A DNA stretch of 64,000 nt, taken from assembly GCA_028695135.1 (NCBI GenBank), contig JAQVJM010000002.1, forward strand, positions 14,249 through 78,248, in the 5' to 3' direction. Under the pieces are notes generated by a model. That model saw only the letters and a program-made list of their open reading frames with translations. It was not told the DNA's origin and searched no databases. Shown piece after piece: positions 18,707 to 39,686 of this stretch (positions are counted from its first letter, which is position 1; the number at the start of each line of letters is the position of its first letter). The DNA is from Candidatus Moraniibacteriota bacterium (GTDB taxonomy: Bacteria > Patescibacteriota > Minisyncoccia > Moranbacterales > UBA9337). The position numbers were made by a program, and so were the translations under genes.

Positions 18707-18879
18707 TGGGGATTAGCCAAGCGGTAAGGCAGCTAGTGGCGCCTGTCCTGCTTAAAGTTCCGAGATCGTCTAATGGTAGGACGACGGGTTCTGGTCCCGT
18801 TAATCCTGGTTCGAGTCCAGGTCTCGGAACTTTGCGCGGGAGTCCCCGTCATGCGGGGGTTCGAATCCCTCATCCCCAG
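18707..18879 (+). pseudogene. Disrupted bacterial-type tRNA-Gln-like gene. The 5' part (18707-18731) carries acceptor strand plus D arm; the 3' part (18836-18879) carries an anticodon-stem hairpin with a 4-nt loop, T arm and 3' acceptor strand. The halves are separated by ~104 nt that contain a complete tRNA gene
   Basis: 5' TGGGGATTAGCCAAGCGGTAAGGCA is nearly identical to the E. coli tRNA-Gln 5' end (UGGGGUAUCGCCAAGCGGUAAGGCA). 3' GCGGG-AGTC-CCCGT CATGC GGGGGTTCGAATCCCTC ATCCCCA G is perfectly complementary to the 5' acceptor strand with U1:A72. The anticodon loop is only 4 nt. Confidence 0.5.
18759..18829 (+). tRNA. tRNA-Gln (anticodon CUG), Glu-like body, U1:A72
   Basis: Cloverleaf TCCGAGA TC GTCT AATGGTA GGAC G ACGGG TTCTGGT CCCGT TAAT CCTGG TTCGAGT CCAGG TCTCGGA A; anticodon loop TT-CTG-GT; D arm resembles tRNA-Glu. 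Confidence 0.8.
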
Positions 18880-20788: not shown

Positions 20789-20808
20789 CCTGCCTGCCGG
20801 CAGGCAGG
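20789..20808. repeat. GC-rich REP-like perfect palindrome CCTGCCTGCCGGCAGGCAGG (copy 1), nested in a longer AT-rich inverted repeat
   Basis: Exact 20-bp palindrome; identical copy at 22270-22289; related copies at 29197-29218 and 33196-33262. Confidence 0.7.
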
Positions 20809-22200: not shown

Positions 22201-22269
22201 TGATAATTAATTCGAGATTAAATTGTGCAAAAATCCGCCCGTCTGCACATGTCATTCTGAACGAATTGA

Positions 22270-22289
22270 ACCTGCCTGCCGGCAGGCAG
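22270..22289. repeat. REP-like palindrome CCTGCCTGCCGGCAGGCAGG (copy 2)
   Basis: Identical to 20789-20808; the two copies bracket the GT4 gene 20834-21955. Confidence 0.7.
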
Positions 22290-22352
22290 GAAATCTCTGT
22301 TTATTTAGATGAGATCATTCTCTGCGCCCAGGATGACATTTGAGAAATGTCA

Positions 22353-29179: not shown

Positions 29180-29809
29180 ATGGAAGGGGAAAATATCCTG
29201 CCTGCCGGCAGTCAGGGAAAATTCATAGTTTTTGAAGGATTGGACGGATCGGGACAGAGCACGCAGATAAGTTTTTTGGAGAAATATCTGAGGGACAAGG
29301 GGGAAAAATTTCACACCACTTCTGAGCCTTCCGGCAGCCTGATCGGCGGATTGATCAGGTCGGTTCTTGCCAAGCAATGGACGCTGAGCAATACCGGAAT
29401 ACAGCTGCTTTATGCTGCTGACAGGGCGCATCATTTGGAATCAGAAGTCCGGCCGGCTTTGGAGAAAGGCAATCACGTCATTTCCAGCCGTTATTATTTT
29501 TCCACTTTTGCTTTTGGATCTCTGGAAAATGACGTGGAATGGCTGGAAAAGATAAACGAGAAGTTTCGTGCTCCGGATATAACCATCTATATAAAAGTTT
29601 CACCGGAAGAATGCATCAGGAGAATAGAGGATTCCAGATTTCGCCGAGAGCTTTTTGAAGAAAAGGAAAAATTGGAAGAAGTTTCTAAGATGTATGACAA
29701 AATTTATACTAGCGGAAAGTATGATAATTTTCACGTTGTAGACGGGGAGAGGTCAGTCGAGGAAGTTTTTAAAGACGTGATCGGAATAATCGATAAATAT
29801 ATAGATTAA
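29180..29809 (+). CDS. tmk: Thymidylate kinase
   Basis: FIVFEGLDGSGQSTQ P-loop, DRAHHLE, lid region; N-terminal ~12 codons contain a copy of the REP-like palindrome. Confidence 0.85.
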   Translation: MEGENILPAGSQGKFIVFEGLDGSGQSTQISFLEKYLRDKGEKFHTTSEPSGSLIGGLIRSVLAKQWTLSNTGIQLLYAADRAHHLESEVRPALEKGNHVISSRYYFSTFAFGSLENDVEWLEKINEKFRAPDITIYIKVSPEECIRRIEDSRFRRELFEEKEKLEEVSKMYDKIYTSGKYDNFHVVDGERSVEEVFKDVIGIIDKYID

Positions 29810-31875: not shown

Positions 31876-32112
31876 TTACATAAAATGCTTTCTTATGAAT
31901 GCCCTGCCCGAACCTGATTTTAGATATTTTTCGAATTCAAAAGCTTTGTATTTACCAGAAAAAGATGTATAGCACATCAATTTCACTGGCAATCTACCCT
32001 TAGTTGAATCAATATATCCCTTTCCATGTCTTTCAATCCTATCTTTCAAATCATTAGTACAACCTGTGTATAGATTGCCATCAGAACATACTAATATGTA
32101 AACATAGAACAT
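31876..32112 (-). CDS. GIY-YIG nuclease-domain small protein (UPF0213/YhbQ-like)
   Basis: MFYVYILVCSDGNLYTGCTNDLKDRIERHGKG...GRLPVKLMCYTSF; start moved to the internal ATG because the upstream part of the ORF overlaps tRNA-Ser. Confidence 0.7.
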   Translation of the reverse strand: MFYVYILVCSDGNLYTGCTNDLKDRIERHGKGYIDSTKGRLPVKLMCYTSFSGKYKAFEFEKYLKSGSGRAFIRKHFM

Positions 32113-32124
32113 ATGCGAATCTCT

Positions 32125-32185
32125 CCTTCGCGGCGAACCACTGGCGGACTTGTCCGCCGTAGCTCGCCGTTTCGGCGAGCGAAGG
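32125..32185 (-). ncRNA. GC-rich multi-hairpin structured element in the tRNA-Ser trailer/GIY-YIG leader (tRNA-like three-way junction)
   Basis: On the minus strand: CCTTCGC [CTCGCC-GAAA-CGGCGAG] CTAC [GGCGGA-CAAG-TCCGCC] AGTGGTTCGCC GCGAAGG; ~70% GC in an AT-rich genome. Confidence 0.4.
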
Positions 32186-32272
32186 CGGAGAGAGAGGGAT
32201 TCGAACCCCCGGTACCCTTTCGGGCACAACGGTTTTCAAGACCGTCGCATTCGACCACTCTGCCATCTCTCC
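32186..32272 (-). tRNA. tRNA-Ser (anticodon UGA), class II with long variable arm
   Basis: Minus-strand GGAGAGA TG GCAG AGTGGTCGAAT GC.. ACGGT CTTGAAA ACCGT TGTGCCCGAAAGGGTACC GGGGG TTCGAAT CCCTC TCTCTCC G. Confidence 0.8.
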
Positions 32273-32395: not shown

Positions 32396-32962
32396 ATGAA
32401 TATCGACTTACGGAGAAGCGGGCATAAAAAAAACAATATCCGCATAAATCATGAAGGGGATTATCTCGAAAAACCCCATGATTTTATGATTTCTGAGCAT
32501 AGCGACGTGCTTATCGAATGGCAGGGTCCGGAATATGAGCATTATCCCAAGGAAAAAGTCTGGTATTTAGTGGCTTCGCTTATTTTGGCGGCGATAGTAT
32601 TTTACGCGCTCATAAACAATAGTCCCATCATGGCGATACTTTTCATCCTGATAGGGATAGTGGGCTATATCCAACTGGAAAAGCATCCCCGAGTTCTAGA
32701 TTTCAAAATTACTCATGAAGGAGTCATGGCAGGAAATGAATTGTATGATTTTGACAGCGTAGAATCTTTTTGGATTTTTTATGAGCCGCCCCATACGAAG
32801 ATTTTAAGCCTTCATACGGACGCTCTCCTCGTTCCTTATGTCCATATACCGGTTCACCAGATCGATCCTGTAAAATTAAGGGAGGTCTTGATGGATTTCA
32901 TTCCGGAAAAGAAGCAAAAACCTACGATGATAGACACGATAGAGAGACTTTTGCATATATAG
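32396..32962 (+). CDS. Two-TM membrane protein (hypothetical)
   Basis: Hydrophobic helices VWYLVASLILAAIVFYALI and IMAILFILIGIVGYI. Confidence 0.4.
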   Translation: MNIDLRRSGHKKNNIRINHEGDYLEKPHDFMISEHSDVLIEWQGPEYEHYPKEKVWYLVASLILAAIVFYALINNSPIMAILFILIGIVGYIQLEKHPRVLDFKITHEGVMAGNELYDFDSVESFWIFYEPPHTKILSLHTDALLVPYVHIPVHQIDPVKLREVLMDFIPEKKQKPTMIDTIERLLHI

Positions 32963-33108
32963 GATAAATTAAAATTTCAAAATACAAATTAAAAGTCGTG
33001 TAATTTTTTTAATCATTCTTATTATACAATTCCTGTGCGGTCGCAAGATAATGGTATAATGTTATGCGCTTGATATTCGCGCCATTTTGTGGTTGAATTC
33101 TTTTGCAT

Positions 33109-33182
33109 GTTCCCATAGCTCAGTTGGATAGAGCGTTGGCTTGCGGAGCCAAAGGTCGGAGGTTCGAATCCTCCTGGGAACA
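33109..33182 (+). tRNA. tRNA-Arg (anticodon GCG as read; U33 and purine-37 context)
   Basis: GTTCCCA TA GCTC AGTTGGATA GAGC G TTGGC TTGCGGA GCCAA AGGTC GGAGG TTCGAAT CCTCC TGGGAAC A. Confidence 0.75.
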
Positions 33183-33190
33183 CAATTGAG

Positions 33191-33335
33191 GTTCCCTGCC
33201 TGCCGGTCGTACGCCGCCATAGGCTTTGGCCGACGGAGCGCCGGCAGGGATTCCTCACGAGGGCACAGGCATAGGCAGGCGGGGAGCGTTGGCTTGAGGA
33301 GTCAAAGGTCGGAGGCTCGAATCTTCTCGGGGACA
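33191..33335 (+). pseudogene. Degenerate tRNA-Arg-like duplicate interrupted after the 5' acceptor strand by a ~75-nt GC-rich palindromic (REP-like) insertion
   Basis: GTTCCCT + [GCCTGCCGG...CCGGCAGGGATTCC...] + CATAGGCAGGCGGGGAGCGTTGGCTTGAGGAGTCAAAGGTCGGAGGCTCGAATCTTCTCGGGGACA aligns to the upstream tRNA-Arg with multiple stem-breaking substitutions. Confidence 0.55.
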
Positions 33336-33557
33336 CGGAATAATTCTGACGATTATCCAGTCTTGAACATACTATAGTATGTTCAAAGGTATGTTCATCG
33401 GTATGTTATTTTTTGTATTTTAAAATTAATGCAAAAGTAAAATCGTATATGAATTTTTTTTAAATCTGGATTTTAAGAGGGGATTTTGAAAGTTAGTTTG
33501 TATGGCAAGAAGAGTATGGTAGAATAAAGATGACAGGCTAAATATAGTCATAATATC

Positions 33558-34004
33558 ATGGATACTCAAATAAGAATCAGGGAGGCCTCGATAGACGAGG
33601 TCATAAAAATCGGGAAAAAGGTTCTCGGCGCTGAGAAAATGAAGCCCCGGGAGCATTTTGAGGAGAGATATAAAGACAAATATCATCTGATTACGGTTGC
33701 TTACCTGGGGGATAATCCGGCCGGATATGCGGTGTGGTATGACAAATATGGCGACGGGTCGCTTTATTGCTGGATGACTGGAGTAAGTCCAGATTTCAGA
33801 AGGAAAGGAATTCTTAAGGGACTTATGGCTTTCGGATTGGCGATAGCCAGGAATAAAAGATATGAAAAAATAAAAACCAAAGTGAGAAACAGCGAACGGG
33901 GCATGCTGGCTTATCTGACTAAATACGGATTTTCAATCACCGATTTCGAAGAACGTCCGAATAATGAAGACAGCAAAATAAGTTTCGAAAAAGATCTGGA
34001 ATGA
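33558..34004 (+). CDS. GNAT-family N-acetyltransferase
   Basis: HLITVAYLGDNPAGYAVWY...GVSPDFRRKGILKGLMAFGLAIA (acetyl-CoA-binding R-x-x-G-x-G/A motif region). Confidence 0.7.
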   Translation: MDTQIRIREASIDEVIKIGKKVLGAEKMKPREHFEERYKDKYHLITVAYLGDNPAGYAVWYDKYGDGSLYCWMTGVSPDFRRKGILKGLMAFGLAIARNKRYEKIKTKVRNSERGMLAYLTKYGFSITDFEERPNNEDSKISFEKDLE

Positions 34005-35176: not shown

Positions 35177-35880
35177 GTATGAGCGTTCAAGATTTTTATT
35201 ATGATGTAATTTTTTAAAGATAATAAATTACTTGAAAAGACAACAAAACAAATCTAAATACAAAAGCGGGTGAATTTTTTTACAGCTATTTTTTAGTTGT
35301 CAAGAGATTGCTCGCCATTAAGGCGAGTTTTTTATTTGGTCCTGCGGATGGCGGAATTATGCGGAAGTCTGGACAAAATAATGTAAAATAGGAGTTGTGC
35401 CGAAATACTTTTTTGTGAATATTTCATGAAAAAATATTTCCGCGCAAATCCGGTAAGAATGATCCGGATGAAGCGAACCTTAAAAATTTAATATTGACCT
35501 ATTGAGTAGCTTTGATCCAGATCAAGCAATTGCGGAAAATCTGATCGGGGCCAAGAAATAGGCGTAGGTAAATCCTGCCGCTTTATCGGCGGCGGGAAAC
35601 AAAGCAATTGCAGTTGACGATCTTAAATGATTGTTAACTGTTAACTTTACCCCGTGTAATCCAGCTTTGCTGGTCTCGCTTGCGAGAATTTCACGGGGTG
35701 AATCCTGCCGCTTTCGAGCGGTGGGAAAAACAACAAAAAGGTTACTTAAGCGTATGGTGGATGCCTAGACTCGTGTGAGCGATGAAGGACGTAGCAGATT
35801 GCGATAAGCCTCGGGGAGCTGTCAAGCAAGCTTTGATCCGGGGATTTCCGAATGGGGAAACCCAGCCGTACATAGCACAG

Positions 35881-36012
35881 AAAATCCGAAATTTAAAATC
35901 CGAAATCCTAAACAATTTTAAAGTCCAAATAATTTAAATTTAAAAACTTTTTAAATTTAGAATTTGGAAAATTTTAATTTATTTAGAAATTGATGCTTTG
36001 AATTTCGAATTT
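35881..36012 (+). repeat. 23S intervening sequence IVS1 (AT-rich hairpin element family) in the helix 9/10 hairpin loop
   Basis: Interrupts the loop of stem CCGTACATAGCACAG/CCGTGTTGTGTGCGG; begins AAAATCCGAAATTTAAAATCCGAAATCCTAAACAAT, ends ...GAATTTCGAATTTC; internally self-complementary. Confidence 0.7.
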
Positions 36013-36382
36013 CCGTGTTGTGTGCGGTTACTATTATCTGAATTCATAGGATAATGGAGCAAACCCAGTGAACTGAAACATCTTAGTAGCTGGAGGAATA
36101 GAAATCAATAGAGATTCCGCAAGTAGTGGCGAGCGAACGCGGAACAGTCTAAAACTCGTCGCCCTCGGGCGACGGGTGGTTGCGAGATAATTGTACTCGT
36201 TTAATCGGGATTGCCTCATATTTTTTAGCAGAACGTTCTGGAAAGAACGGCCAAAGGAAGTAATAGCCTTGTATGCGAAAAAAAATATGAAGCGATGAAA
36301 TTATTCTCAAGTAAGGCGGGACCGGAGAAATCCCGTCTGAATCCGGGAGCACTAACTTCCAAGACTAAATATTACACGAGAT

Positions 36383-36419
<37 letters not shown>

Positions 36420-36492
36420 CATCCCGATAAGGGAGATGAAATAGTATCTGAAACCATATGTTAACAAGGAGTCAGAGCCGTACGTAGTACGG

Positions 36493-36623
36493 AAATCCGA
36501 ATATTAAAATCCGAAATCCGAAACAATATCAAAATTCGAATTGCAAAAATTCAAAAAAATTTTGAATTTAGAATTTTGAAAATTATGATTTGTTTAGAAT
36601 TTCGTGTTTAGAGTTTAGAATTT
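36493..36623 (+). repeat. 23S intervening sequence IVS2 (same family) in the helix 25 loop
   Basis: Interrupts stem GCCGTACGTAGTACGG/CCGCACTGCGCACGGC; begins AAATCCGAATATTAAAATCCGAAATCCGAAACAAT. Confidence 0.7.
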
Positions 36624-37817
36624 CCGCACTGCGCACGGCGATGGCGTGCTTTTTGCAGAACGAGCCAACGAGTTAGTTTTATACGGCTTGCATAAATTAC
36701 TCTGTAAGATATGCATAGTGAAAGCGAGGCTTAACCGCCGATTTTGTCGTATGGACTAGACCCGAATCCAGGCGAGCTACGCATGGGCAGGGCGAACCCC
36801 GAGTAACATCGGGGGGAGGCCCGCACCCACTGATCGTTCGACATCAGGGGATGACCTGTGCGTAGGGGAGAAATTCCAATCGAGCTTGGCTATAGCTGGT
36901 TCTCTCCGAAATAGCTTTGGGGCTAGCGTTCGTTAAATGAGCGCGGGAGGTAGAGCTACTGGATGAGTGTTCGCGGTTCGCCGTAGAACACTCAACCAAA
37001 CTCCGAATTCTTGCGTTTCTTATTCGAGCAGTCAGAAATCCGGCTCTAAGGTCGGATCTCAAAAGGGAAAAAGCCCAGACCATAATCTAAGGTCCCTAAA
37101 TTCATATTAAGTGGCAAAGGAAGTAGAGTTTCTTAAACACCTAGTAGGTTGGCTTAGAAGCAGCCATCCTTTAAAGAGTGCGTAATAGCTCACTAGCTTA
37201 GAGACTTTGCGCCGAAGATGTAACGGGGCTAAATATGATACCGAAGATATGGACCTGTCGCTCTCGAGCGACGGGTGGTAGGAGAGCGTTCTCTGTGAGC
37301 CGAAGCCAAAGGCGTGAGCCATGGTGGATCGCAGAGAAGTGAGAATGTTGGCATGAGTAACCGCAATGTGAGTGAGATCCTCACACCCCGAAAGTTCAAG
37401 GTTTCCTGGGCAATGGCAATCATCCCAGGGTTAGTCGGTCCTAAGGCGAGGCTGAAAGGCGTAGTCGATGGACATACGGTTAATATTCCGTGACTATGAT
37501 TACAATCGATGGAGTGACGCATTTTAGTAACTGTCGCATGTTATTGGATTCATGTAGGTTTTCTGAGGATGTATAGCAGGCAAATCCGTTATACATTAAG
37601 TCCAAGGAAAATCTGGACGCTTCTCTTCGGAGGAGCTAACGACAGCCAGCAGAGTGCCAGGAAAAACTTCTAAGATTATTGTTTTCATATCCGTACCGCA
37701 AACCGACACAGGTGAACAGGGCGAGTAGCCTAAGGGGAACGGGAGAACCTTCGCTAAGGAACTCGGCAAAAAATCTAGACGTAAGTTCGCGAGATGTCTT
37801 GCCAGTGCTTAGCACTA

Positions 37818-37938
37818 AAAATTCGAAATCCGAATATCGAAATCCGAAACAATATCAAAATTCAAATAATTAAGGGCCGTTTTGAATTTAAAAAATTTGA
37901 AAATTATAATTTGTTTTGAGTTTCGTATTTTGATATTC
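37818..37938 (+). repeat. 23S intervening sequence IVS3 (same family) in a domain IV variable helix (helix 63 region)
   Basis: Begins AAAATTCGAAATCCGAATATCGAAATCCGAAACAATATCAAAATTCAAAT; ends ...TTTTGAGTTTCGTATTTTGATATT. Confidence 0.65.
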
Positions 37939-38123
37939 GTGCTTTTGGTGCTATGCATTGGCCGCAGCTAAAGATTCCAAGCGACTGTTTATCAAAAACA
38001 CAGGTCTCTGCAAACCCGTAAGGGGATGTATAGGGGCTGACGCCTGACCAGTGCTGGAACGTTAACGGGAGCGGTGCAAGCCAATCCCCGAAGCGCCAGT
38101 GAACGTCGGCGATAACTATAATC

Positions 38124-38155
<32 letters not shown>

Positions 38156-38384
38156 ATTCCGACCCGCATCAAAGGCGTAACGACTTGGAAACTGTCTCAG
38201 TGAAGGACCCGGTGAAATTGCAATAACGGTAAAGATGCCGTTTACCTACGGCAAGACGAGAAGACCCCGTGGAGCTTTACTACAACTTGGCATTGAATTA
38301 AGATTCTGGCTGCCGAGAATAGGTGGGAGACTTTGAAACCGCGATCCAGGTCGCGGTGGAGTCGCCAGTGGAATACCACCCTGT

Positions 38385-38525
38385 CATTATTTTAATTCTA
38401 ACCCTGTGCTGTTAAGAGTTTGGTAGAAAGTATAAAGTAGCAAGTATAAAGTATGGCAAACCACAATATATATCTTAGTGTCTGAACATAATACATACTA
38501 CATAATACTTCCTGCTTGATTCTTA
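38385..38525 (+). other. ~90-nt expansion in the 23S helix 79 region containing (AAGTATAAAGTA)x2
   Basis: About 140 nt where E. coli has ~50 nt between GAAATACCACCC and CAGTGTCTGGTGGGTAGTTTGA. Confidence 0.45.
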
Positions 38526-38742
38526 CCAGCACGGGAACAGTGCCTGGTGGGTAGTTTGAGTGGGGCGCTCGCCTCCTAAATGGTAACGGAGGCGCTTACA
38601 AAGGTTGGCTAAGTCCGGATGGAAATCGGACTGATAGTACAAAAGCATAAGCCAGCTTTACTGAAAGACTAATAAGTCGCTCAGTTACGAAAGTAGAATT
38701 TAGTGAACCGACCATCGCTTGTAGGAGCGTGGAAGATCATCA

Positions 38743-38774
<32 letters not shown>

Positions 38775-38907
38775 AGTGCCCAAGAGTTCATATCGACGGC
38801 ACTGTTTGGCACCTCGATGTCGGCTCATCTCATCCTGGGGCTGGAGCAGGTCCCAAGGGTTTGGCTGTTCGCCAATTAAAGAGGTACGCGAGCTGGGTTC
38901 AAACCGT

Positions 38908-39166
38908 AAAATGGCTTTTTAGCTTTTAGAAAAAGGAAATTTTACAGTTTGAATCCGAGGTTATAGACATCACATCATGGCGGCTTTTGTTAGCAATAAC
39001 AAAAGAGAAGCTAACTAATATCGGTAGAATCCTAGCGAGTAATCGCGGACAATACCGAGGGAATTTGTCTAATTTGACAAAGCCCGTAGAGACTAGACGT
39101 TAGCCTCCATAATTATTTGTGGATGAAGTTATAGTCCAATGCACGCAGTAATGCGTGAAAAACATG
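38908..39166 (+). other. 259-nt ORF-less group-I-intron-like insertion at the classic 23S homing site (between ...AACCGT and CGTGAGACAG, E. coli ~2593)
   Basis: Exon junction matches E. coli GAACGT|CGTGAGACAG; 5' exon ends in U, insert ends in G; core-like elements AGAGACTAGAC (R-like) and AAGTTATAGTCC (S-like, cf. AAGAUAUAGUCC). Confidence 0.55.
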
Positions 39167-39572
39167 CGTGAGACAGGTTGGTCTCTATCTGCCGTAGGCG
39201 TTATTACTTGAGAGGATTCTTTCCTAGTACGAGAGGACCGGAAAGAGCGAACCTCTGGTGCATCGGCTGTTCCGCCAGGAGCAATGTCGAGTAGCTATGT
39301 TCGTAAGGGATAACCGTTGAAAGCATCTAAACGGGAAGCCTACCTCAAGATAAGGTAATTTATGTTTTCCTAGAAGAAGACTAGGTTGATAGGCTCTAGG
39401 TGTAAGCGTAGTGATACGTTTAGCCGAGGAGTACTAATAAACTAAAACCTTTTTTTGTTTTTGCTTAGTGGCATACTATAGTAGCCATTAGGAAAAAAGT
39501 TAACAGTTAACAGCCATTTATATACATCTGGCTGGAGCTTTTTAAAACCTACAATTTTTTTGAATATATGAT

Positions 39573-39686
39573 TCTTGGTGTCTCTAGCGAAGGGGGTACA
39601 CCTGATCCCATTCCGAACTCAGCAGTTAAGCCCTTCAGCGCCGATGATACCCGGTTTTTCCGGGGAAAGTAGGTCGGTGCCAAGAA
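39573..39686 (+). rRNA. rrf: 5S ribosomal RNA
   Basis: TCTTGGTGTCTCTAGCGAAGGGGGTACACCTGATCCCATTCCGAACTCAGCAGTTAAGCCCTTCAGCGCCGATGATAC...GTAGGTCGGTGCCAAGA; flanked by complementary ATATGATTCTTGG/CCAAGAATCATAT processing stem. Confidence 0.85.

Follow-up and report, generated by a model that had tools for sequence, protein, structure and literature searches.

Repetitive extragenic palindromic sequences and bacterial interspersed mosaic elements (REP/BIME), Rickettsia palindromic elements, mitochondrial GC clusters and double-hairpin elements are all miniature palindromic repeats. The partial tRNA fragments which integrating elements leave behind, the remnants of attachment (att) sites, have been reviewed (PMC9897764). 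In fungal mitochondria, mobile endonuclease open reading frames (mORFs) bring a replacement end for the gene that they enter, as in Allomyces atp6 and Glomus atp6, atp9, cox2 and nad3, and the native end is displaced as a pseudogene (PMC3630166). SegB, a free-standing GIY-YIG homing endonuclease, is located in the tRNA gene cluster of phage T4 (PMC2988022; PMC13096335). The subject of this text is a tRNA-Arg(GCG) gene and the DNA just downstream of it (33184-33336) in a 64,000-nucleotide stretch, called the window, from Candidatus Moraniibacteriota (contig JAQVJM010000002.1 of assembly GCA_028695135.1); all positions are those of the window, and the loci and contigs compared with it carry L numbers. 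With a probability of roughly 60% we regard this DNA as a graveyard of tRNA-Arg(GCG) 3' ends, left by repeated replacement of the gene and colonised by mini-palindromes.

The intact gene, which carries the allele designated type A below, was placed by ARAGORN and Rfam (RF00005, 74 bits) at 33109-33183 on the forward strand, in agreement with the original prediction from the sequence alone (33109-33182). Its acceptor strands are GTTCCCA and TGGGAAC. The DNA that follows had been described as a single second copy, opening with an acceptor strand at GTTCCCT and interrupted directly after it by about 75 nt of GC-rich palindromic sequence; it is composed of two separate remnants in the same orientation, B and A', which start 1 nt and 101 nt past the gene. 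Remnant B consists of a left piece at 33184-33194 (AATTGAGGTTC; variable loop, 5' strand of the T-stem and the TTC of the T-loop) and a right piece at 33249-33266 (GATTCCTCACGAGGGCAC; the rest of the T-loop, the 3' strands of the T-stem and acceptor stem, and the discriminator). Joined together, the 29 nt match the 3' end of the tRNA-Arg(GCG) of locus L032 at 29/29 positions and those of L016, L017 and L021 at 26/29, as against 19/29 for the window's own gene, and they span tRNA nt 44-76 of a type B allele. Since the flanks of the insert are this 3' end, the GTTCCCT at 33191 is not an acceptor strand; it is the GGTTC of a T-loop followed by the opening bases of the insert. The acceptor 3' strand of remnant B, CGAGGGC, does not fit the resident 5' strand GTTCCCA.

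The GC-rich insert is present as proposed, but it is 54 nt long (33195-33248, forward strand) and interrupts the T-loop of remnant B at 56|57, not the region just 3' of the acceptor strand. It is a nested palindrome whose arms, CCTGCCTGCCGG...CCGGCAGG, are those of the 20-nt perfect palindrome CCTGCCTGCCGGCAGGCAGG, which occurs elsewhere in the window. We define the CCTGCCTGCCGGCAGGCAGG family by the shared arms CCTGCC(TGCC)...GGCAGG together with the ability to form a hairpin. The insert belongs to it, as had been supposed: its left arm agrees at 12/12 positions and its right arm at 8/8, the arms CCTGCCGG/CCGGCAGG are 100% complementary, and the predicted DNA fold has an energy of -15.7 kcal/mol. 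Within the insert, 33223-33239 (GCTTTGGCCGACGGAGC) resembles the anticodon arm of tRNA-Arg (GCGTTGGCTTGCGGAGC) at 13/17 positions, which could be chance or the trace of recombination between hairpins of different tRNA copies.

Remnant A' (33284-33336) extends from the 3' strand of the D-stem to the 3' end (tRNA nt ~22-76) of a type-A-like allele and is 87% identical, over 53 nt, to 33131-33183 of the live gene. The degenerate 3' copy is in this respect real, and so are the changes reported in it (GCG>GAG, the anticodon position now reading GAG, and TTCGAAT>CTCGAAT), but the picture of one copy running from the D arm through the 3' end and decaying by stem-breaking substitutions fails, the remnants being other alleles. 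The acceptor 3' strand of A', CGGGGAC, is of the type found in L027 and L041 and again does not fit GTTCCCA. Between the remnants lies a filler of 17 nt (33267-33283, forward strand) which ends in ...GGCAGGCGGG directly abutting GAGCG and seems to correspond to the right half of the hairpins present at D-loop 21|22 in relatives (compare ...GCAGGCGGG|GAGCG in L083, L017 and L086). To judge by this likeness, A' probably once bore a D-loop hairpin of which the left half has since been lost. A 12-nt inverted repeat connects 33193-33204 with 33274-33285.

The region 33184-33336 is dead DNA, a non-functional scar, and neither piece is a tRNA. The original prediction had envisaged that the second copy might instead score as a functional tRNA with a canonical intron. 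The Rfam tRNA model gives it 15.8 bits (E=2.9) over model positions 9-63 only, below the gathering threshold of 29 bits, ARAGORN calls no tRNA downstream of 33183 at this locus, and a brute-force scan in which candidate introns were deleted produced a weak ARAGORN call in only 4/1155 variants. The idea of a hidden intron-containing tRNA was rejected on this essentially negative scan; the sole RF00028 match in the window is in the 23S gene. The fold energy is no better than that of shuffled sequences (z=-1.2 for the whole region and -0.03 for 33267-33336), the inserts of the window region (at E<=10) and of 12 related loci match no Rfam family, and the downstream region is absent from the nearest relatives, L019 and L025. 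The stretch 33001-33400 is 100% identical in at least eight independent assemblies (ENA, JGI, NCBI, Logan) and is therefore no assembly artefact. In the anatomy of the downstream region and in its lack of function we have high confidence.

Relatives were gathered as 80 Moranbacteria loci by means of the neighbouring 188-aa protein, and the order tRNA-Ser / 188-aa protein / tRNA-Arg(GCG) is kept in ~60 of them. The anticodon of the conserved gene (L016-L095 and window 33109-33183) is GCG, whereas the usual bacterial counterpart is an ACG (inosine) tRNA-Arg; a few loci have an adjacent tRNA-Arg(CCG), and the two stand in tandem with a spacing of 9-40 nt in L068, L075 and L034. The tRNA-Arg genes of these loci fall into three allele types: type A (...AGYTGGATAGAGC..., 75 nt) in the window, L019 and L025; type B (GCYCTCGTAGTTCAACGG...) in L016, L017, L021 and L032; and type C (...AGTGGATAGAGCGTYTGGTTGCGGTCCA...) in most of the remaining loci. 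A neighbour-joining tree of the 188-aa protein unites the window, L019 and L025 as sister to the clade which carries type B, and type A reappears patchily elsewhere on the tree, among type-B and type-C lineages. The gene is also a synteny breakpoint, the downstream genes of the window and of L019 being different. A phage origin of the type-A tRNA-Arg was considered and rejected, IMG/VR holding no exact match to it.

These observations suggest a history in which the resident tRNA-Arg(GCG) would have been swapped more than once for another allele arriving on incoming DNA. Each new complete gene would have been joined at the 5' side, part of the old 3' portion being stranded just downstream, and B (type B, nt 44-76) and A' (nt 22-76) would be the two survivors of this process. 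Since the acceptor strands of the remnants, CGAGGGC and CGGGGAC, misfit the resident GTTCCCA, whole genes appear to have been exchanged and not their 3' ends alone. The stranded pieces would then have been free to take insertions, B receiving the 54-mer at 56|57 and A' a hairpin in the D-loop of which half is left. The palindromes themselves would be small non-coding mobile DNA which inserts cleanly, without target duplication, and disproportionately into loops of tRNA origin.

Debris of this kind is not confined to the window. A BLAST census recorded, in ~55/80 Moranbacteria loci, an intact tRNA-Arg, -Ser or -Pro gene accompanied by truncated tRNA copies that share its orientation. The 5' copies (nt 1 to ~nt 34-61) stand upstream of the gene and the 3' copies (from ~nt 22-57 to the 3' end) downstream of it. 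The remnants are often of an allele other than that of the live gene which they flank. A live type A gene is bordered by type-C remnants, on one side or on both, in L041, L042 and L048, and L188 offers for tRNA-Ser a 3' version without an open reading frame (ORF), a remnant of another allele in the same layout as in the window. Pseudo-copies without any hairpin are found in L080, L048 and L034, and several 3' fragments likewise have none. The second disrupted tRNA locus claimed for the window was also recovered, at 18707-18879 on the forward strand, where an intact tRNA-Gln(CTG) (18759-18830) is nested between the halves of another tRNA: a 5' part at 18707-18736 (tRNA-Gln-like TGGGGAT..., D arm) and a 3' part at 18855-18879 (T arm and ATCCCCA). 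The acceptor strands of these outer halves pair perfectly, and with the middle taken out ARAGORN recognises a tRNA in 540/1080 deletion variants.

Some relatives (L064, L065, L069, L071, L076, L080, L082 and L095) have a conserved element of ~150 nt 3' of tRNA-Arg, made up of an antisense 3' tRNA fragment with a hairpin between its acceptor and T-stem strands and finishing with the final 18-20 nt of their own tRNA-Arg, repeated in sense orientation. This terminal copy co-varies 100% with the gene, for which gene conversion and function are both candidates. An origin of the fragments by reverse transcription of mature tRNA was rejected, as they lack CCA and one runs into the 3' flank of the gene.

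Inserts of the palindrome family form a graded size series of 16, 20, 40 and 54 nt at equivalent tRNA-loop sites in the window and its relatives. The 16-nt form is in the T-loop of a tRNA-Arg remnant in L074, the 20-nt form at D-loop 21|22 of tRNA-Arg copies in L077 and L041 and after GAGT in the D-loops of tRNA-Ser in L078 and L060, and 40-nt nested forms are again at D-loop 21|22 in L035 and L083; in L082 a copy lies within the T-arm. Two further hairpin families use the same loop sites, one beginning YCCRCCAYAGGYGGA... and the other a double hairpin of ~57 nt in tRNA-Ser copies. The latter, GNCNNATGCG..GCATNNGNC GGGTTTCAAAAGAAACCC, is conserved in truncated 5' copies of tRNA-Ser, after the GAGTGG of their D-loop, upstream of tRNA-Ser (L065, where it is in tandem, L069, L088, L093, L094, L075, L051, L070, L081 and L043), and is followed by a T-run, a promoter-like AT stretch and the intact tRNA-Ser gene; it has no Rfam match. 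That the palindrome is an artefact of sequencing or assembly was ruled out, since its copies are reproduced in independent assemblies, come in variant and nested forms, and occupy orthologous sites across diverged species. No description of its sequence was found in the literature, nor an Rfam family; of the traits of REP and its associated tyrosine transposase (RAYT), no conserved flank was seen, and no transposase is among the genes called in the surveyed stretches of the window.

A search for exact matches to the 20-mer in public metagenomes returned at least 120 contigs (L137-L256) with G+C contents of 29-71%, and 142 copies with <=2 mismatches were analysed; the figures for this sample, here and below, are among the matches listed. 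Thirteen palindromes on nine contigs are in tRNA-derived DNA, with an alignment that spans the insertion point. Since tRNA genes make up 0.3% of the DNA in the sample, the expectation is 0.3-1%, and the enrichment holds at P<=1e-9 even if the share of tRNA-derived DNA is tripled. The insertion points are after nt 10, 13, 14, 17, 21-23, 36, 41 and 53, to which nt 47 in L120 and nt 56 or 61 in the window, L074 and L082 are to be added; most are within or adjoining loops, chiefly the D-loop (after nt 17 or 21-23). The host copy is mostly truncated and lies 100-400 nt from an intact gene for the same tRNA (Ser, Lys, Arg(TCG), Leu or Asn). The suggestion that palindromes target tRNA genes is borne out by this enrichment but not for live genes: of ~230 called tRNA genes, none contains the palindrome except the phage-like tRNA-Met of L120. 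The palindrome is thus observed to end up in the loops of tRNA-derived DNA, and almost only in dead copies. In L120 (2239-2330; an IMG/VR contig of 64% GC) the 20-nt palindrome is in the variable loop of a tRNA-Met(CAT) which ARAGORN calls with the palindrome as a long variable arm, perhaps a case of a live gene that tolerates the insertion; a homologue at 8616 in L097 has lost the T arm. A hairpin-bearing tRNA-Arg as the sole copy was sought among the relatives without a called tRNA-Arg and rejected, as these loci simply miss the gene.

None of the palindrome copies (0%) has an immediate target duplication of >=4 nt. Direct repeats of >=8 nt within 30 nt on both sides accompany 14% of copies and 2.2% of controls, a six-fold excess, and 8% of copies are enclosed by larger hairpins with stems of >=7 bp compared with 1.7% of controls, about five-fold. 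A general rule that the palindrome inserts into hairpin loops was found to be weakly supported by the latter figures, the overall rank test giving P=0.075.

As to how the gene might have been replaced, the most likely route would resemble the mORF cassettes of fungal mitochondria, in which a nuclease gene travels with a partial copy of its target, leaving the displaced native part as a pseudogene; complete cassettes would be those preserved in other contigs, and the scar alone would be left here. For this mechanism we would put the odds somewhat short of even. Four contigs (L230, L180, L209 and L186) show a 5' pseudo-copy with a palindrome, then a GIY-YIG ORF of 75-95 aa, then the intact tRNA, the same layout with a degraded ORF being present in L235. 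The pseudo-copies of such contigs end at ~nt 27-50, mostly near the anticodon loop. A hidden Markov model built from the cassette ORFs recovered 29 ORFs in the fetched loci, 21 of them within 110 nt of an ARAGORN-called tRNA gene. The palindrome is located ~10-40 nt upstream of the end of the pseudo-copy in the ORF-bearing contigs. Enzymes of the I-TevI type cut ~23-25 nt upstream of their insertion site, and by analogy the palindromes might mark the site of cutting. The distribution of alleles in the window is also that of an mORF, for the displaced part B is of the sister-clade/L032 type, the native allele of the relatives, while the live gene carries another allele, the patchy type A.

The window itself contains a GIY-YIG nuclease ORF of 78 aa (31876-32112, reverse strand; Pfam PF01541, E=8e-14) 72 nt downstream of tRNA-Ser(TGA) (32184-32272, reverse strand), a candidate member, by its sequence and position, of the tRNA-associated nuclease cassettes. 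ORF and spacer together occupy 31876-32183. The spacer reads CCGCC TTCGCTCGCC GAAAC GGCGAGC TAC GGCGG...; it is GC-rich and hairpin-forming, its outer stem includes the 3' end of the tRNA itself, and it is conserved after tRNA-Ser genes in L045, L085, L087 and L092. L127 has, at 440-900, a tRNA-Lys-like 5' copy bearing the palindrome at 21|22, then a GIY-YIG ORF, and then a second copy of the tRNA. ARAGORN does not call this later copy, which is broken beyond its anticodon stem by a GC-rich, structured segment that may be an intron or a further insert.

One may go further and suppose that a selfish system acts upon the tRNA genes of uncultured bacteria, including those of the Candidate Phyla Radiation (CPR): minimal GIY-YIG cassettes would cut in the D-/T-loop region and insert at the anticodon loop or close to it, and part of the gene would thereby be duplicated or imported. 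The cut loops would capture the 20-nt palindrome or be its target, cassettes and palindrome would jointly drive continual turnover and horizontal replacement of tRNA alleles, and the Arg and Gln loci of the window would be fossils of such events. In this full form the proposal is speculative, and we think it rather unlikely. The wider pattern, in which uncultured bacteria combine the turnover of tRNA genes with loop-seeking mini-palindromes and with minimal GIY-YIG ORFs associated with tRNA, is apparently undescribed; we call it so because we found no literature description of the palindrome, and because a paper on CPR insertion sequences is silent on tRNA. Nor was a literature description of links between tRNA, GIY-YIG proteins and the CPR found.

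Several observations weigh against the graveyard reading or parts of it. At the Arg locus of the window no nuclease ORF lies between the gene and the displaced pieces; the cassette mechanism is therefore extrapolated from other contigs, and we claim the locus as the scar of an mORF-like cassette, not as a member of the class. The GIY-YIG proteins, at 78 aa, are small and lack a DNA-binding domain; we know of no site-specific activity for them. The order A' to B to A, in which the type-A-like remnant is distal to that of type B, is awkward for simple stacking. Live gene and dead copy share 100% identity in many relatives, so that local duplication fits as well as import. Finally, 91% of the palindromes are outside tRNA-derived DNA and only ~8% are in obvious larger hairpins (among the matches listed), which makes the preference for loops and tRNA a tendency and not a rule, and the enrichment could in part be survivorship, insertions being tolerated only in dead DNA.

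The frequent identity of dead and live copies would also be natural if the palindrome had come first, its insertion into a loop killing the sole functional tRNA gene and the survivors gaining an intact copy, at once or shortly after, by fork-stalling/template-switch duplication or by uptake of a foreign allele. The palindrome-bearing copies of the metagenome sample adjoin an intact gene wherever the contig is long enough, and the six-fold excess of nearby direct repeats in non-tRNA DNA (14% vs 2.2%) suggests that duplication accompanies these hairpins (both among the matches listed). Such a course of events demands a lethal intermediate, though, and it leaves the many pseudo-copies that are free of hairpins (L080, L048, L034 and several 3' fragments) without a cause; three unrelated hairpin families share the same loop sites, and in the window the remnants do not duplicate the live gene but come from foreign or older alleles. 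We consider it improbable.

Same-orientation 3' tRNA fragments were reportedly recognised as an integration footprint by Williams in 2002. A phage, plasmid or integrative element bearing a 3' part of tRNA-Arg could have integrated by site-specific recombination within the tRNA, of the T-loop or anticodon-loop class, and displaced the native 3' end to its far border (attR), the interior of the element being deleted later, and the breakpoint of synteny between the window and L019 at tRNA-Arg would agree with this. Fragments of this orientation 3' of an intact tRNA are indeed the classic sign of integration (PMC9897764). The fragment should then be the 3' end of the gene that it flanks; B agrees with the resident gene at 19/29 positions and with another allele at 29/29. 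A swap of 3' ends retains the resident 5' acceptor strand, with which the acceptor strands of the remnants do not pair. The fragments begin within 0-100 nt past the gene with no island or element DNA left, Pfam detects no integrase among the genes called in the ~29 kb of window surveyed around the locus, and the type-A tRNA-Arg was not found on viral contigs (IMG/VR). The upstream 5' pseudo-copies and the nesting of tRNA within tRNA are not products of the usual 3'-restoring integrases. The chances of integrase scars are accordingly slim.

The history first put forward, a simple tandem duplication of the resident tRNA-Arg followed by decay through point mutations and a REP-like hit after the acceptor strand, draws on the agreement of GTTCCCT at 33191 with 6/7 of the acceptor strand, on the 87% identity of the 3' part to the resident gene and on the tandem tRNA-Arg(GCG)+(CCG) pairs of L068, L075 and L034. 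The 29/29 match of the flanks to another allele excludes the acceptor-strand reading, the acceptor strand of A' differs from that of the resident gene, and the alignment of the two copies by MAFFT, a check that had been recommended, requires two insertions and a broken D arm; we regard this history as very improbable. That the region specifies a functional RNA, whether an intron-containing or split tRNA that reads GAG in its anticodon or a tRNA-like element which is transcribed together with tRNA-Arg and acts in processing or regulation, is scarcely credible: the anticodon and T stems of A' still pair by means of G-U pairs, a 12-bp helix (33193-33204 / 33274-33285) could enclose the whole insert and the sequence is invariant across all assemblies of the population, but there is no 5' strand of a D-arm, the model scores, deletion scan, fold energies, lack of an Rfam family and absence from L019 and L025 given above all tell against it, and to our knowledge bacteria have no splicing endonuclease of the archaeal type.

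Three other copies of the palindrome family were located in the window. Perfect 20-nt palindromes are at 20789-20808, which is intergenic and identical in six independent assemblies, and at 22271-22290, identical in five. The latter is the centre of a larger inverted-repeat element (22250-22340) with the arms ATGTCATTCTGAACG ... CGCCCAGGATGACAT; arms of the GTCATTCTGAGCG/CGCTCAGGATGAC type flank palindromes in several unrelated metagenome contigs (L214, L155, L181, L192, L249, L138 and L039), and the palindrome may thus be hosted by a second family of repeats. A copy with one mismatch (29197-29216) is inside the called 5' end of the thymidylate kinase (tmk) ORF, ahead of the conserved GKFIVFEG motif. 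Either the protein has an N-terminal extension encoded by this copy, or translation really starts further downstream. Just 3' of the remnants (33363-33400) are a 24-nt perfect AT-rich palindrome, TTGAACATACTATAGTATGTTCAA, and two further GTATGTTCA repeats; no terminator-like site was predicted within 32900-33600.

The rRNA region of the window (35735-39685) has a bacterial 23S gene of ~3.7 kb, which contains several large insertions as well as a group I intron (38961-39158), followed by the 5S gene; an Rfam scan found no 16S rRNA gene across the window. Such wealth of insertions in rRNA genes is typical of the CPR. Proteins of the window are also found in a metagenome-assembled genome (MAG) of Candidatus Moranbacteria (Patescibacteria/CPR; GCA_028718005.1) and in several independent assemblies. 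An archaeal origin, and with it an archaeal-type intron, is ruled out by the bacterial 23S/5S genes and the Moranbacteria MAG source.

For annotation, the practical consequence is that in CPR genomes such loci give rise to tRNAs falsely called as "extra" or "intron-containing", and that they mark synteny breakpoints. The data point to frequent replacement by foreign alleles of essential single-copy tRNA genes in highly reduced genomes, and to an extremely small (20-nt) mobile palindrome, biased towards tRNA loops, which is widespread in environmental bacteria and phage-like contigs.

Compared with known systems, the palindrome is like REP/BIME and the other miniature repeats in being a short GC-rich hairpin in an AT-rich genome, sometimes nested or inside genes, as at the 5' end of tmk. 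It differs in its perfectly palindromic 20-nt core without a flanking GTAG-type motif; no RAYT-type transposase gene was seen, without a search aimed at one. Identical copies occur across contigs of 29-71% GC (among the matches listed), and in dead copies they prefer the D- and T-loops of tRNA. Archaeal non-canonical introns and split or permuted tRNAs likewise interrupt tRNA at D-loop or T-loop positions, whereas here the organism is a bacterium, the exons are incomplete, there is no bulge-helix-bulge, and the interrupted copies are truncated and adjacent to an intact gene.

With att-site remnants the locus shares partial, same-orientation copies beside an intact tRNA which are non-functional and easily mis-annotated. 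In contrast to them it has no integrase or island, its fragments are 0-100 nt away and belong to other alleles with non-matching acceptor strands, and the wider set includes 5' fragments, nested tRNA-in-tRNA arrangements and GC-rich hairpins mostly in or beside loops. SegB resembles the cassettes in being a GIY-YIG gene among tRNA genes, and its activity leads to preferential inheritance or amplification of its own tRNA region; it is, however, a phage protein with a DNA-binding region which effects clean gene conversion, and neither truncated tRNA copies nor palindromes are reported with it.

The closest likeness is in the mORFs, where a nuclease ORF (LAGLIDADG or GIY-YIG) is located between the functional hybrid gene and the displaced native part, the incoming part being a foreign allele and the native part like that of relatives. 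The system described here differs in that its targets are bacterial tRNA genes, often with the 5' half duplicated, in that the GIY-YIG ORFs are minimal (75-95 aa) with none at the Arg locus, and in being known from sequence. If these ORFs are the engine, they would constitute a bacterial counterpart of the mitochondrial mORF gene hybrids, and tRNA-gene DNA with and without the palindrome would be a testable substrate for a very abundant, uncharacterised protein family.

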